From Dehalococcoidia bacterium (GTDB taxonomy: Bacteria > Chloroflexota > Dehalococcoidia > Bin125): DNA of 64,000 nt. A model generated the notes under the pieces. The model was given only the letters and a program-made list of their open reading frames with translations. It ran no database searches and was not told where the DNA came from. Shown piece after piece: positions 11,159 to 50,805 of this stretch. The DNA lies in the NCBI GenBank assembly GCA_963555985.3, contig OY820591.1, positions 2,848,001 through 2,912,000 of the forward strand. The letters run 5' to 3'. A program made the position numbers and the translations under genes. Numbering within the stretch: the stretch's first letter is position 1; every line of letters starts with the position of its first letter.

Positions 11159-11353
11159 CCATTGCCGCACTTCGTCGCGTAAATCAAAGATCGTCATACC
11201 CGCGCTTGTCGCGGGTATCTCGCTGTGATCTGCACCGTTGTCGCTCCCACGGCGAACTGGCCGCGTCGGAGCGCGGCAATGATAGAGAACATCGACGTTC
11301 GCAAAGCTCTCCCTTCGCGGGGACAGGCTCCGCGGCAAGCGCGGGTATGACGG
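11159..11353. repeat. Composite REP cluster with remnant MITE right end
   Basis: REP-A copies at 11192-11222 and about 11330-11352; spacer GATCTGCACCGTTGTCGCTC shared with about 50665; TTCGCAAAGCTCTCC TIR remnant at 11298-11312. Confidence 0.85.
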
Positions 11354-28838: not shown

Positions 28839-29045
28839 AGAGCGTTTTGCGAACGTTCATCCCCGGCGTCATCGGCCTCGGAGCAGCGGATCGTGCGATG
28901 TGAGGTCGGTGCTACGACCAGATTGGGAGTGGTTTCACACTTGGTTGCTTCGAGATTCCCGCCTGCGCGGGAATGACGGAATTGGGGTTTTGCAACGGTC
29001 TCCCTGCGCGGGCATGACGGAGTTGGGAATTTTGCACGGGTCTCC
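28839..29045. mobile_element. Degenerate MITE (subfamily 2) plus an extra REP/TIR unit
   Basis: AGAGCGTTTTGCGAA...TTTTGCAACGGTCTCC (28839-29003); interior matches 41850-42016; followed by another GCGGGCATGACGG...TTTTGCACGGGTCTCC unit. Confidence 0.75.
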
Positions 29046-32479: not shown

Positions 32480-32632
32480 GATCGCCTCTCCCGGTTTGAT
32501 GCCGCCGCCGGATTCGGCGCGCGACGGCTTGGGGGGCAGTCTATGTCAGTGGGGGTCGTGTGCGGGGGGAGAAGGTTTAAGGCACGGTAGGGACTGGGCG
32601 GTCGCGGTTCGCGGCCTGACGGGGGCTGTGAG

Positions 32633-32669
32633 AAAAAAAACGAGGGGGTCGCCGCTTGCGGTCGGGGGA
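32633..32669 (-). terminator. Possible intrinsic terminator for the 32670-33038 ORF
   Basis: Minus strand short CCGC-AA-GCGG hairpin followed by a T8 tract; spacing is imperfect. Confidence 0.35.
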
Positions 32670-33038
32670 TTACTGCGGCTCTTCCTCTTCTTCGAGGCTG
32701 TCGTCGTCGTCCGGCAGGGGCACGTCTTCGCCGCGCATGAAGGCGACGACTTCGTCGTAGATCTCGAACATCGGGTGGAGGTGGAAGTCCTTCTGCTGTT
32801 CAGGAGTGAGGGGGGCTTCGGGCAGTCTGGGGGAGTGGTTGGGTTGGGGTTTGGGGCGTGGCTCGGGATGGGGTTCGAGGTCGAGGGCGTGGTGGATCTC
32901 GCGGGTCTTGGCGTTGGAAGGGGAGAGTTCGCGGATGAGGAGGGCGAGCGCTTTGATGCGGACGTGTCCGGCTTCGTTGGAGTGGGCGATTTGGCCGACG
33001 CCGGTCATGCTGGACTGGTAGGTGTGGGGGAAGGGCAT
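32670..33038 (-). CDS. Hypothetical protein (122 aa; Pro-rich linker, acidic tail)
   Basis: AAGAAAGGAA RBS; upstream TTGCAA-N16-TATAAA; downstream T-tract. Confidence 0.6.
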   Translation of the reverse strand: MPFPHTYQSSMTGVGQIAHSNEAGHVRIKALALLIRELSPSNAKTREIHHALDLEPHPEPRPKPQPNHSPRLPEAPLTPEQQKDFHLHPMFEIYDEVVAFMRGEDVPLPDDDDSLEEEEEPQ

Positions 33039-33154
33039 GGGGTTGTTCCTTTCTTGGGAACCTGTGTTTTGGATAGGTGAGTTTATATGTTCTGATATTC
33101 GGCTTGCAAGTTGGTTGGGTGTGTTGCGGTTGTCGGAAGGTTGGGTGCTTGATG

Positions 33155-33500
33155 TGGCGTTTCACCCCCTCTGCCCCTCTGGGGCATCTCCCCCTTGAGG
33201 GGGAGAGGTTTCTTGGGGGAGGTGGGTTGGGGGTTGGGTGCTGGTCACGGCGAGATACCCGCGACGGAGCGCGGGTATGACGGAAGTAGGGTTGGGGTGC
33301 GGGGCGTTTGTGCTGGGTGTGGCGTTCTCACCCCCTCTGTCACTGCGTGACATCTCCCTCCCCGCCTGCGCGGGGACAGGCTCTCAAGGGGGAGATTTTT
33401 CTTGGGGGAGATTTTTTGGGAGAGGTGGGTTGGGTGCTGGTCACGGCGAGTGATCCCCGCCTGCGCGGGGACAGGCTCCGCGGCGGGGCGCGGGTAGGCG
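33155..33500. repeat. Duplicated composite REP-B plus REP-A cluster; contains an empty MITE target site
   Basis: Two units, each REP-B...GGTTGGGTGCTGGTCACGGCGAG. The second unit carries CCCCGCCTGCGCGGGGACAGGCTC modules inside both hairpins. Confidence 0.85.
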
Positions 33501-34040: not shown

Positions 34041-35918
<1,878 letters not shown>

Positions 35919-36029
35919 GATGCGGAAGGTCGTCGCTTTCGGCTCGGCTGGCCACTGGCGTATTCACGCTATCAGAGCGCCGCTAGTGCGAGCGGGCGGC
36001 GGGATTTCCCGCGAAACACTGGTGATCGT

Positions 36030-36079
36030 GGGTTTGGGCTGTTCGGTCTTGTTCGGGTTTGTTCGGTGATGTTTGGCTC
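36030..36079 (-). repeat. 10-bp tandem array
   Basis: Minus strand GAGCCAAACA TCACCGAACA AACCCGAACA AGACCGAACA GCCCAAACC. Confidence 0.8.
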
Positions 36080-36159
36080 TCGCCGGGCGGCCGGGTCCGA
36101 GCCTCGCCGACCAGGCAGTCGGATGGATTCCGGCCCCCGCCTACGCGGGGGCAGGCTGC

Positions 36160-36441
36160 GGAGACGTTTGTGAAATCCTCGATCTGGGCGTTTCGTCATT
36201 CTTGCGAACGCGGGGATCCACGTCTCACTCGATACGCTGGATGGATTCCCGCCTACGGAGGCCTTTGCAAATTGGCATTCCCGCTGCTCTCGTCATTCCA
36301 GCGAAAGCTGGAATCTCGCCCGACCAGATAGACCGAACTCCGAACGAGATTCCAGGTCAAGCCTGGAATGACGGAAATGGGGATTTTGCAAAGGCCTCCC
36401 TATGCGGGAATGACGGAAACGGGAGTTTTGCACAAGCCTCC
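36160..36441. mobile_element. Outer MITE (degenerate TIRs, CTGC target duplication) containing a nested MITE
   Basis: CTGC|GGAGACGTTTGTGAAA ... TTTTGCACAAGCCTCC|CTGC, inside a REP-C hairpin. Confidence 0.75.
36257..36399. mobile_element. MITE subfamily 1 (143 bp), nested
   Basis: Perfect 15-bp TIR GGAGGCCTTTGCAAA/TTTGCAAAGGCCTCC; flanks CTAC/CTAT; near-identical inverted copy at 50501-50642. Confidence 0.9.
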
Positions 36442-36577
36442 CTGCGCGGGAACGACGGAATTTGGGATTACGCGCACAGCTGGCCATGGGCCAGCTGCGA
36501 TTGTTCCGCATCAACTGCTTCTTTCGCTGCGCACTGTCAATTTTGAATGTCTCGCCTATCTGGGTAGACTGCGTGCC

Positions 36578-37060
36578 GTGTCTTCGTCAGAGTTCTCCCA
36601 GCGAGATTTTCCGTCGGCTTTCCAGCCTCTTCCAGCAGTCAGCCCGGACGCGCCGCATTGGGGCGAGCGTTTTGCTCGGGAGATGCCGTCGATGGAGCCG
36701 CCGTACTACGGGGTGAATGTGGCGGATGTGCGCCGGGAGCACTACGACGCGATCTTCCAGAACATCGAACAGCAGGTGCAGGGTGCGGAGCTCCTGTTCG
36801 GCGGCCGGCTGCACTTCTTCTCGGCGACGGACTACGGCGAGCTTCGGCGCGTGATGTTCATCCTCTACTTCGAGACCTTCCCTGACACAGAGACCATCCT
36901 TGACACACTGGGCGGACTAGGGCTCGACCGGGCCGACGACGTGACCCAGTTTCCCGACATCTGGACAGGGTCCGAGCTCTGGACGGAGTTCACACGCCTG
37001 GCGGAGGGCTACACGTGGTGGGTCATGCCTGCGCTGCCAGTGAACGAGCCCCCGCAGTAG
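36578..37060 (+). CDS. Hypothetical protein (about 160 aa), probably leaderless
   Basis: TTGAAT-N16-TAGACT lies 7 nt before the in-frame GTG; typical codon use after that point. The upstream part of the 36368 ORF is repeat DNA. Confidence 0.72.
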   Translation: MSSSEFSQRDFPSAFQPLPAVSPDAPHWGERFAREMPSMEPPYYGVNVADVRREHYDAIFQNIEQQVQGAELLFGGRLHFFSATDYGELRRVMFILYFETFPDTETILDTLGGLGLDRADDVTQFPDIWTGSELWTEFTRLAEGYTWWVMPALPVNEPPQ

Positions 37061-37200
37061 CCGACCCTTCTGGTTCTCTCCGTTGTTCTCGCTGCTCGGG
37101 TCTGCGGACGGGAGTGTGGGAATCCTGTATGATGTGAGTGCGCAGGGATGCGCCTGGCGTTATTTGGCGGGCGACCGCCCCGGACTGATCTGGCGGCCGT

Positions 37201-38232
37201 ATGGCCGCCATTTCGTATCTGCTGAATTGGGTCGCGGCGATGGCGACCATGGATCAAGGCAGCGGCGGCGAATGGTGGCGGACTGCGCTGGAGCGTGCGC
37301 TCGCGCCGGTGCAGCGGCTGCGGCGGGGAATTTTTCAGTCGCTCTCGACGCTGGAGCTTCTGCTGGGCGGGTTTGGCCTGGTTGCGGCGCTGGTCACGGC
37401 TGCGTTGTTGTCGCCGGTGCTGGGGTTGTTGCCGGGCGCGGCGGGGGAGTTCGTGCCGATTGGGGTGGCGATCTTGCTGTCGCCGATCGGGATCGGGGTG
37501 GCGCTGGGTCGGCGGGCTGAGGTGGAGCGCTTTGTCAACACCGTGCGCGGGCGCGTGGACGAGGTGACCTCAACGGTCGGCGTTGGACGCCGTCCGCCGC
37601 CGCAGGAGGCGATCCTCGACACCAGCGCGATCATCGACGGTCGGATCGGCGAAGTGGCGCTGACGGGTTTCATCCTGGCCGAACTGGTGGTGCCCCGCTT
37701 CGTGCTGGACGAGTTGCGCCGCGTCGCCGACAGCAGCGACCGGAACAAGCGTCAGCGCGGACGGGCGGGACTGGAGCTGCTGGCACGGTTGCAGGCGGAC
37801 GAGTCGGTGCCCACGGTGATCGAGGATCCGCCTGCGAACGAATCCGATGCCGAGGCTGACGATGTTGACGCTCGCCTGGTGCGGATGGCGCTGGATCGGG
37901 GCGCGGCACTGATCTCGACCGACTCGAATCTGATTCGGGTGGCGGCGCTGGAGGGCGTGCGCACGCTCAACCTCAACGCGCTCGCCAATGCAGTGAAGAC
38001 GAACGTGTTGCCGGGCGAACTCTTGCAGATCGAACTGCTTGAGCCCGGCAGGGATCCGGATCAGGCGGTGGGCTATCTGCCCGACGGGACGATGGTGGTC
38101 GTCGAAGAGGCCGCCGCGCTGGTGGGAGAGACGCGCAGCGTCGCGGTCAAACGTGTGATCCAGACCCAGGCGGGACGGCTGGTGTTCGCGCGTCTGGTGG
38201 ATGAGGCGATGGACATCGCGGAGGCGTCGTGA
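37201..38232 (+). CDS. PIN/TRAM domain membrane protein (YacL-like)
   Basis: ILDTSAIIDGRI, FVLDEL...ADS.D..KR.RGR.GL and Q.VGYL.DGTMVVVE motifs; start uncertain. Confidence 0.92.
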   Translation: MAAISYLLNWVAAMATMDQGSGGEWWRTALERALAPVQRLRRGIFQSLSTLELLLGGFGLVAALVTAALLSPVLGLLPGAAGEFVPIGVAILLSPIGIGVALGRRAEVERFVNTVRGRVDEVTSTVGVGRRPPPQEAILDTSAIIDGRIGEVALTGFILAELVVPRFVLDELRRVADSSDRNKRQRGRAGLELLARLQADESVPTVIEDPPANESDAEADDVDARLVRMALDRGAALISTDSNLIRVAALEGVRTLNLNALANAVKTNVLPGELLQIELLEPGRDPDQAVGYLPDGTMVVVEEAAALVGETRSVAVKRVIQTQAGRLVFARLVDEAMDIAEAS

Positions 38233-41849: not shown

Positions 41850-42016
41850 GGAGGGCTTTGCAACAAACCATCCCGGTGCGTTGGGGCCTAGGGAGGGACG
41901 GATCGTGCGATCTGAGGTCGGCGGTACGACCAGATTGGGAGTGGCTTCATACTTGGTTGCTTCGAGATTCCCGCCTACGCGGGAATGACGGAAATGGGGA
42001 TTTTGCAAAGGCCTCC
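41850..42016. mobile_element. MITE subfamily 2 (167 bp)
   Basis: CTTC|GGAGGGCTTTGCAA ... TTTTGCAAAGGCCTCC|CTAC inside a CCCCGC...GCGGGG hairpin; interior shared with 28839-29003. Confidence 0.8.
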
Positions 42017-42191
42017 CTACGCGGGGATGACGGATGTGGTTGCGGATCTCGTGATGTGAGGTCGGCGGTACGACCAGATTGGGAGTGGCTTCATACTTGG
42101 TTGCTTCGAGATTCCCGCCTACGCGGGAATGACGGAAATGGGGATTTTGCAAACGTCTCCAAAGGCGGGGATGACGGATGTGGTTGCGGAT
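41913..42191. repeat. Tandem duplication with 144-bp period
   Basis: TGAGGTCGGCGGTACGACCAG...GGTTGCGGAT starts at 41913 and 42057; the copies are nearly identical. Confidence 0.92.
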
Positions 42192-50343: not shown

Positions 50344-50805
50344 ACTCTCCCCCTTGAGGGGGAGATGCCGCAGGCAGAGGGGGTGAGAACGCCACGCCCG
50401 GCAGTCCCCGCTCCCACTTCCGCCATATCCGCGTCGGGAAACCTCTGCGTACGTCAAAGACCGTCATACCCGCGCCTGCCCGGAGCCTGTCCCCGCGCAG
50501 GGAGGCCTTTGCAAACCCCCATTTCCGTCATTCCAGGCTTGACCTGGAATCTCGTTCGGAGTTCGGTCTATCTGGTCGGGCGAGATTCCAGCTTTCGCTG
50601 GAATGACGAGAGCAGCGGGAATGCCAATTTGCAAAGGTCTCCGCAGGCGGGGATCACTCGCCATGATCTGCACCGTTGTCGCTCACACGGCGAGATTGCC
50701 CCCTGTTCAGGCCAGGGGCAGGCTGCGACGGAGTGCGGTAATGACGGAGGTAGAGAGGATCGGAAAACTCTCCCCCCGCAAGGCGGGGGGACAGAGGGGG
50801 GTCCC
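50344..50805. repeat. Composite REP cluster (B, A, A' and MITE)
   Basis: REP-B at about 50346-50386 and 50768-50803; REP-A at 50462 onward; REP-A' at about 50690-50747. Confidence 0.88.
50501..50642. mobile_element. MITE subfamily 1 (142 bp) with perfect GCAG target duplication
   Basis: GCAG|GGAGGCCTTTGCAAA ... TTTGCAAAGGTCTCC|GCAG. Removing it restores the reverse complement of about 33446-33480. Confidence 0.92.

Follow-up and report, generated by a model that had tools for sequence, protein, structure and literature searches.

Probable IS5-family miniature elements nested at palindrome centres in an intergenic gap of a Dehalococcoidia genome

How does an intergenic gap come to hold repeats within repeats, with one element lying at the middle of a palindrome that belongs to another? 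This question is raised by positions 36121-36476 of a 64,000-nt stretch of DNA (the window; C1:2848001-2912000) from a metagenome-assembled genome (MAG) of a member of the Dehalococcoidia (Chloroflexota). The assembly comprises 3.33 Mb in 11 contigs, with 65% G+C, a completeness of 96.4% and a contamination of 7.5%. The locus most probably consists of stacked non-autonomous derivatives of IS5-family insertion sequences (ISs), i.e. miniature inverted-repeat transposable elements (MITEs), that were inserted at palindrome centres in an intergenic gap. The array comprises the following parts, given in window coordinates.

36121-36133, plus strand: GGATGGATTCCGG, a degenerate arm on the left side of the third-level (outermost) palindrome
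36135-36150: GC-rich palindrome CCCCGC-CTAC-GCGGGG (inverted repeat I8), between the degenerate arm and the outer element
36156-36159: left 4-nt direct repeat CTGC of the outer element
36160-36441, plus strand: outer MITE, an interrupted member of the 135-bp family, with ends at 36160-36174 and 36427-36441
about 36193-36218: internal palindrome A of the outer MITE
36243-36256 and 36400-36416: palindrome B of the outer MITE, split
36253-36256: left target-duplication copy CTAC of the inner element, equal to the spacer of palindrome B
36257-36399, plus strand: inner MITE, a member of the 143-bp family, with perfect 15-bp ends at 36257-36271 and 36385-36399
36400-36403: right target-duplication copy CTAT of the inner element, a 3/4 match to the left copy CTAC
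36442-36445: right 4-nt direct repeat CTGC of the outer element
36446-36476, plus strand: right arm GCGGGAACGACGG (36446-36458) and degenerate right end ATTTGGGATTACGCGCA... (repeat D1, 67%)

The inverted ends of the inner element, GGAGGCCTTTGCAAA, are perfect over 15 bp, as the original prediction for this locus had claimed. Palindrome B of the outer element reads GGATTCCCGC-CTAC to the left of it (36243-36256) and CTAT-GCGGGAATGACGG to the right (36400-36416); the two arms are complementary at 8/8 positions and the flanks agree as direct repeats at 3/4, in keeping with the predicted split of an enclosed hairpin at its loop. When the inner element and one 4-nt copy are excised in silico, an outer element of 135 bp is obtained. 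Seven uninterrupted copies on C1 and one on C5 can be aligned with it from q1 to q133 or beyond (identity 83.7-86.7%), and according to the family alignment palindrome B is whole in these copies. The nesting is therefore real. The ends of the outer element, GGAGACGTTTGTGAA and the reverse complement of TTTGCACAAGCCTCC, agree at 10/15 positions, and its perfect CTGC/CTGC flank and degenerate terminal inverted repeats (TIRs) at 36160-36441 stand as described. The inner element contains two palindromes of the CCAGC type, ATTCCAGC-GAAA-GCTGGAAT at 36295-36314 and ATTCCAGG...CCTGGAAT at 36349-36369, and as single-stranded DNA it is predicted to fold end to end (-40.6 kcal/mol, z -7.7).

Outside the outer element, an outermost hairpin had also been proposed. 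Its right arm GCGGGAACGACGG is clear. The left arm, which reads GGATTCCGG at 36125-36133, is degenerate and is parted from CTGC by the GC-rich palindrome at 36135-36150, the origin of which could not be settled; the left-arm region at 36121-36133 forms a direct repeat (D9) with 36239-36253 at 93% identity. The predicted 42-bp periodicity was reproduced, with units beginning at 36365, 36407 and 36449 (identities 100, 83 and 67%), and Tandem Repeats Finder reports 36365-36460 with a period of 42, 2.3 copies and 85% matches. The third 42-bp unit resembles ...ATTTGGGATTACGCGCAGGTCTCC, which is how right ends read in a variant family of 146 bp, and the segment 36446-36476 that corresponds to it is part of a third, outermost, decayed older element. 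Altogether, the end motif has 11 matches (at most 2 mismatches) in the window, compared with a mean of 0.22 and a largest value of 2 in 100 shuffles.

Are these elements a local oddity or members of families? The same ends are common to several length families of non-coding, multi-copy elements of 135-167 bp, with internal palindromes filling most of each element. On C1, 12 members of the 143-bp family are full-length, with pairwise identity averaging 0.921, and the 146-bp variant family, which differs from the 143-bp one at the left end, has about 11 copies. The 135-bp family counts about 13 or more copies (13 aligned, mean identity 0.867) and the 165-167-bp family about 10. On C1, the end motif has 210 matches with at most 3 mismatches, compared with 52 in a reversed-sequence control. 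A 7-nt palindrome arm followed by exactly 4 nt precedes 78 of the 99 C1 ends that have at most 2 mismatches, with a background of 0.00106 (0.1%) at random positions. Arm-to-end spacings of 2, 3 and 6 nt were never observed and 5 nt was observed twice; most of the remaining 21 ends have a degenerate arm.

The 4-nt flanks obey a similar rule. Among 53 family-sized pairs of ends on C1, they are perfect direct repeats (4/4) in 18 and match at 3/4 in 11, and a perfect inverted repeat was seen in one. When right flanks were shuffled among the pairs, a procedure that preserves the limited spacer repertoire, perfect direct repeats averaged 2.27 with a maximum of 9, and 18 or more were reached in 0/10,000 shuffles. 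The arms are complementary in 30/53 pairs with at most 1 mismatch in 7; under a strict arms criterion, the repeat is 4 nt long in 16 pairs, 5 nt in one and 3 nt in one. Inverted arms with a direct spacer are the pattern expected of a target duplication within a palindromic site and not of a long inverted end. The predicted non-coding multi-copy elements with inverted ends, whose direct 4-nt flanks equal the palindrome spacer, are thus a genome-wide feature, as is the bias for palindrome loops. Clean nestings, with both outer ends recognisable and a family length restored after excision, number two on C1, namely this locus and 702392-702695, where a 165-bp element lies within a 135-bp one.

Autonomous elements with the same ends are found in related genomes. 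PF01609 (IS4/IS5-type DDE transposase) has matches in 36 of 60 other genomes of the same taxonomic family, and 4 of 20 such loci examined carry the ends, spaced 1169-1236 bp apart around an open reading frame (ORF) of 320-340 aa. The ORF products score 262.8 and 253.8 bits with the IS5 family transposase model NF033581, for which the cut-off is 140, and also match PF01609 and PF05598; the ends match those of the host MITEs, GGAG[GA]CCTTTGC.... With 20 additional copies fetched, 24 IS loci from relatives G052, G031, G035 and G046 were examined. Both ends were present at 14 of them, 12 of which have complementary C-rich/G-rich arms and 11 of which have 3-4-nt direct repeats. The other ten loci lack a pair of these ends and belong to other IS types. 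The full-length IS with the same ends that had been anticipated therefore exists in the lineage as IS5-family elements, and the objection that no transposase goes with these ends does not hold.

The end motif (at most 1 mismatch) occurs 68 times in the host genome and 0-9 times in each of 30 relatives, with nine occurrences in G018 and 0-1 in the 29 others. G018 has a 163-bp MITE that follows the same insertion rule. In a collection of 185,579 species, the junction ATTCCC-N6-GGAGACCTTTGCAAA was found in 18 stretches, all from Chloroflexota MAGs, and 21 of the 22 matches to the 7-nt class in a free-gap search (arm, 4-nt spacer, G, end) are from Chloroflexota. One end in G018 adjoins an IS1595-family element (L084:352-2312; PF12762, 139 bits), which was rejected as a parent: it has itself been inserted in a GGAGACCTTTGCAAA end, within the TTTGCAAA core, and is flanked by the 8-nt repeat TTTGCAAA/TTTACAAA. 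Near C1:2785030 in the host genome, such a motif is also followed by a small remainder of the same IS end.

Matching TIRs, a short direct duplication and a small, non-coding, multi-copy body, as expected of IS5-family MITEs, are all present here, and a cognate transposase in the same genome was not found. We infer transposition itself and the following order of events. The target recognised by the cognate DDE transposase would be a short palindrome rich in G and C, with ATTCCCGC-N4-GCGGGAAT as one form and CCCCGC-N4-GCGGGG and CTCCCCC-N4-GGGGGAG as variants; the enzyme would bind it presumably as a symmetric complex on double-stranded palindromic DNA, and would make staggered cuts flanking the central spacer. 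Such cuts would place the element between two arms and duplicate the 4-nt spacer. At this locus, a 135-bp element would first have inserted into a palindrome belonging to an older element that has since decayed, and a 143-bp element would next have entered palindrome B of the 135-bp one. The elements seen today would be relics of an earlier active phase, remodelled since then by recombination and 42-bp unit duplication.

Where do the targets come from? Intact palindromes of the sequence TTCCCGC-N4-GCGGGAA (type 1) number 92 on C1, along with 43 of TCCCCGC-N4-GCGGGGA, the type to which the GC-rich palindrome at 36135-36150 belongs, 43 of CTCCCCC-N4 and 30 of TTCCAGC-N4; a reversed-sequence control gave 0, 0 and 1 for the three stems tested. 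Of the type-1 palindromes, 63/92 lie within 60 bp of an element end, compared with 2.3% of random positions, so most of them are parts of the MITEs themselves. The preferred CCCGC palindrome is carried by the 135-bp family and by the 42-bp terminal unit of several families, apparently just inside one end, so that an inserted copy would offer a new target. The inner element had been proposed to bring such targets as well, in the form of an intact doublet. The doublet is present; its CCAGC variant is almost never occupied (2-3 half-sites adjoin an end, compared with 30 intact copies), and the 143-bp element therefore adds few new targets. Autocatalytic growth of the arrays with transposase supplied in trans, also part of the original prediction, is weakly supported, with two clean nestings, 42-bp stacks that are mostly one-sided and resemble unit duplications, and no cognate transposase found.

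Several results weigh against the account of palindrome-centred IS5-family MITEs. A PF01609 profile search of the host genome gave 0 matches and tblastn with the transposases of two relatives reached a best E of 0.09, an absence that falls short of proof at 96.4% assembly completeness. As no cognate transposase was found in the host genome, its MITEs are orphans. Candidates for an autonomous copy in this genome were rejected: three inward-facing pairs of ends, ~1.18 kb apart, proved to be MITEs broken by an IS30-family IS, and other inward-facing pairs (up to 6 kb apart) enclose ordinary genes.

No filled/empty allele came to light when second-strain contigs, relatives and contigs of public runs were compared. 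The "empty" copies that were seen are paralogous, being uninterrupted 135-bp elements. The ten small contigs C2-C11 are second-strain versions of C1 parts, which accounts for the contamination figure of 7.5%. They are 94.6-99.1% identical to C1 over ~190 kb of summed aligned lengths and show no MITE-sized indel; gaps of at least 15 nt inside aligned blocks were not seen in any of them. Their differences from C1 are mainly replaced blocks of 1-3 kb, and of nine inter-block gaps examined, one is unlike C1 in its end motifs, with a single C6 match that lacks a C1 counterpart. The five nearest species-level genomes (neighbour-gene protein identity 77-89%) share ~60-100 bp of the gap and have neither element copies nor a readable empty site, the intergenic sequence of species-level relatives being unrelated and an empty site therefore unreadable. 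Public-run data consist of contigs, and stretches of the locus that they leave uncovered are uninformative. Two joints in the contigs that skip part of the array (36252->36407 and 36254->36366) were rejected as empty alleles, since their sides span only 22-25 nt and their additional letters agree with other copies.

The sites on C1 are also less regular than a simple insertion model would have them. A clean repeat-plus-arms signature is lacking in 34/53 pairs and some pairs are flanked by arms of two different palindrome types, so that later recombination has to be invoked. About 14 stacks of ends spaced by 41-43 bp have one opposite end only. Furthermore, should the element begin with GAG and not with GGAG, the duplication might by our reasoning equally be 6 nt long (C-N4-G).

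Could recombination or slippage of short repeated modules have built the arrays for the most part, as a mosaic like the Neisseria intergenic mosaic elements (NIMEs), with no transposition into palindromes and with apparent duplications drawn from a small spacer repertoire? The one-sided stacks, the chimeric flanks of some copies and the count of only two clean nestings all speak for such a process. So does a 41-bp unit that is present in C1 and lacking, at a block edge, in the 97.6%-identical second-strain contig C5. At 262181 on C1, three stacked ends share an identical spacer CTAC and an identical arm variant, which would fit duplication of a 42-bp unit. In contrast, the excess of direct flanks survives the spacer-preserving shuffle (18 vs a mean of 2.27; 0/10,000), family lengths are discrete, inverted ends are present on both sides, and full-length IS copies in relatives occupy the same kind of site. 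As a replacement for transposition we regard this process as unlikely; it probably acts alongside transposition.

A second possibility is that the palindromes are true repetitive extragenic palindromes (REPs), or REP doublets forming hairpins (REPINs), spread by a REP-associated tyrosine (RAYT, Y1) transposase, with the surrounding elements being secondary. Abundant intergenic palindromes, a mark of REPs and REPINs, do occur on C1, and the inverted-palindrome doublets of both elements, dispersed in intergenic DNA, resemble REPIN architecture. However, PF01797 (Y1/RAYT) had 0 matches in the host genome, whereas the same search was positive in 6/14 control genomes. The clustering of 63/92 intact palindromes within 60 bp of element ends and the IS5-type ends with target duplications argue in the same direction; we know of no REPINs that have either. 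Since a RAYT gene was not found and most palindromes lie within MITEs, they are not REPs in the RAYT sense, and the strict REP identity assigned to them in the original prediction is not retained. We hold this explanation to be very improbable.

The same palindromes have other occupants. An IS30-family IS of 1039 bp has 10 copies on C1, all outside the window and 99.8-100% identical (including 128527-129565, 259918-260956 and 3117167-3118205). Nine of them are inserted at the same point in the left arm of ATTCCCGC-N4-GCGGGAAT (GGATTCC/IS/TTCCCGC, repeat TTCC) with constant orientation relative to the palindrome; the tenth is flanked by AAGC/AAGC. The IS30-family element looks like a currently active palindrome-targeting IS that is separate from the MITE system. 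With mean identities of 0.87-0.92, the MITE families are well above it in divergence, so the MITE bursts are old. In the nearest species-level relative, the orthologous gap (L001:2450-2950) holds four ~110-bp units, each with an intact GTCATTCCTGC-GCAG/GAAG-GCAGGAATCAC palindrome and without these end motifs, and represents a different repeat family on the same palindrome.

Insertion by an IS110/Piv-type site-specific recombinase, in the manner of Neisseria filamentous phages entering dRS3 repeats or of bridge-RNA elements like IS621, would be suggested by the fit of the type-1 palindrome ATTCCCGC-N4-GCGGGAAT to the dRS3 formula ATTCCC-N8-GGGAAT, as given in the accessible part of PMC1797815. 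The elements here differ from this type in their 15-bp inverted ends and 4-nt direct duplications, and PF01548 (IS110) has 0 matches in the genome. IS110-type elements typically have neither long inverted ends nor direct duplications. With IS5-family parents bearing the same ends at hand, this explanation is hardly credible.

The nesting might also be an assembly artefact. In contigs from three public runs, all belonging to one study, both inner/outer junctions are found without a single difference; this check is not fully independent, in that the source sample may be among the three runs (records across the junctions: X6 at 35850-36285 and 36373-36753, X7 at 36372-36688, X8 at 36373-36688). 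A collapse of repeats, conceivable in a repeat-rich MAG with 7.5% contamination and second-strain contigs, is made scarcely believable by these junctions, by the second clean nesting and by many rule-following single copies elsewhere on C1.

How far, then, do the MITEs resemble known systems? The original prediction had compared their TIR with that of Neisseria IS1106. The IS5 type of the ends and the 15-mer given there proved correct, the latter being the end of ISNme1 (Neisseria, IS5 family), which is printed as GAGACCTTTGCAAAA in Table 2 of PMC4596501 and is identical to the terminal 15-mer here; the name IS1106 could not be confirmed. ISNme1 is also proposed there to be the parent of the MITE ATR. 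In genomes of N. mucosa and N. flavescens, we found IS copies of 1.21-1.36 kb that carry the 15-mer GAGACCTTTGCAAAA at each terminus. Their transposase and the Chloroflexota one share 34% identity over residues 26-323 of 327 (E 1e-40). Neisseria matches to the end are mostly at contig ends, and ORFs near the ends at three loci had no BLASTP match. Unlike the elements of our host genome, the Neisseria IS copies examined (L216, L214, L218 and the end-only L212) do not lie between the arms of a split palindrome. The arm-N4-end geometry is absent from all Neisseria matches, three of which have a whole palindrome 8 nt outside the end. Compared with the ISNme1 type, the elements here are non-coding and GC-rich and belong to another phylum. 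The likeness to Neisseria is therefore real for ends, enzyme family and palindrome formula, and the insertion geometry has so far been observed in Chloroflexota only.

Targeting of palindrome axes is known from several ISs. IS1397 and ISKpn1 insert at the symmetry axis of REP palindromes. In the accessible part of Tobes and Pareja (PMC1525189), ISPsy8 (3-bp repeat) and ISRm22 (IS4 family, 6-bp repeat) are described as inserting at a palindrome axis, and IS1106, written there as ISNm1106 (IS5), as preferring REP-containing spaces (4/7 and 7/14 copies). What ISPsy8 and ISRm22 have in common with our case is that they enter an intergenic palindrome precisely at its dyad and are flanked by a short direct duplication. 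In contrast, ISPsy8, ISRm22, IS1397 and ISKpn1 are autonomous, belong to other families and use host REPs as targets, whereas the elements here are IS5-type MITEs whose targets are mostly MITE-borne.

NIMEs, according to the accessible part of Bentley et al. (PMC1797815), consist of dRS3 repeats (20 bp, ATTCCC-N8-GGGAAT) flanking repeat sequence (RS) units of 50-150 bp; their arrays are stated there as not observed outside Neisseria and are ascribed to a dRS3-specific recombinase. As far as that description goes, the palindrome here obeys the same formula, including the GACG extension ...GGGAATGACG, and both systems form intergenic arrays, here of 50-170-bp units between palindrome halves, in which unit number varies between strains. 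The units here differ in having IS5-type ends and direct duplications; at this locus and at the 78 ends, it is half palindromes plus a duplicated spacer that flank them, where NIMEs have dRS3 copies in full. In Porphyromonas gingivalis, MITEs (BrickBuilt, MITEPgRS/MITE464) have the same end type, GAGACC.TTGCA, matching IS5-family ISs and copy numbers in the tens, as here. In the accessible parts of their descriptions, palindrome-centre targeting is not reported and duplications vary in length and sequence.

A broader proposal would be that one clade of IS5-family transposases reads its target as a structure, not as a sequence, and cuts at the two stem/spacer junctions of a GC-rich palindrome, so that the duplication equals the spacer at any length, and that its MITEs seed their own landing sites and build NIME-like mosaics. 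This bolder idea may be suggested by a handful of 3- and 5-nt cases. Clean cases in the host genome have duplications of 4 nt (16), 5 nt (one) and 3 nt (one); among relatives, 3 (or 5) nt are seen in G031 and G035, 4 nt in G052 and one case of 5 nt in G018. We consider it doubtful. That NIME arrays of Neisseria arose by the same process is unlikely, because the few Neisseria IS copies examined lack the geometry.

What is combined at this locus are kinds of elements already known separately, namely IS5-derived MITEs, ISs that target palindrome axes and NIME-like mosaics. A literature search, thin on subscription journals, found no paper on such Chloroflexota elements or on MITEs nested in bacterial palindrome centres, which is a weak sign of an unpublished case. 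The locus would provide a worked example, from outside the Proteobacteria, of how an intergenic repeat mosaic can be built by a MITE which inserts into a palindrome and itself carries a further copy of it. Two features known from Neisseria, the ATTCCC-N8-GGGAAT palindrome and the GAGACCTTTGCAAAA end, co-occur in uncultured Chloroflexota. For the IS5-family transposase clade, a testable target rule is suggested, arm-N4-arm with the spacer duplicated. For annotation, the MITEs account for dense intergenic repeats in these MAGs, and ORFs called across the repeats would be spurious.

The array occupies the gap between a radical S-adenosylmethionine (SAM) gene (PF19864 and PF04055; minus strand, 34041-35918) and an ORF on the plus strand that begins near 36545 and had no match in a Pfam search. 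The closest named records of the radical-SAM protein are from Dehalococcoidia and other Chloroflexota MAGs (protein identity 85-89%). An ORF of 230 aa listed at 36368-37060 begins within the inner element and continues into the next gene; we take it as an ORF-listing artefact. A scan of 35000-37500 against Rfam, at E up to 1, found nothing. Immediately to the left of the array, at 36040-36067, lies a 10-bp tandem repeat TGTTCGGTCT of 2.8 copies, and a similar motif follows a truncated MITE at C1:2967947. Further copies in the window are as follows.

50501-50642: copy of 142 bp with plus-strand flanks GCAG/GCAG (CTGC/CTGC in element orientation), in a CCCCGC-type palindrome
41850-42016: copy of 167 bp
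28989-29045: other end-motif copy or stack
41850-42160: end-motif copies or stack that include the 167-bp copy at 41850-42016
11298-11312: other end-motif copy or stack

A repeat of 0.6-0.8 kb, in about 16 copies, is found at about 32564-33303 of the window and at about 15 other places on C1, and encodes a ~120-aa protein with an acidic tail (...DDDDSLEEEEEPQ). Other multi-copy gene families of C1 often adjoin MITE arrays (e.g. 106901-109166, 664411-666733, 216306-217760 and 261116-262178). A 2.1-2.3-kb repeat in about 7 C1 copies contains a 483-aa ORF, presumably for a phage terminase large subunit. Another ORF, repeated in about 8 copies, is Uma2-like by appearance and is taken to encode an Uma2-type endonuclease, and a further one with about 5 copies on C1 we assume to be a helix-turn-helix protein.

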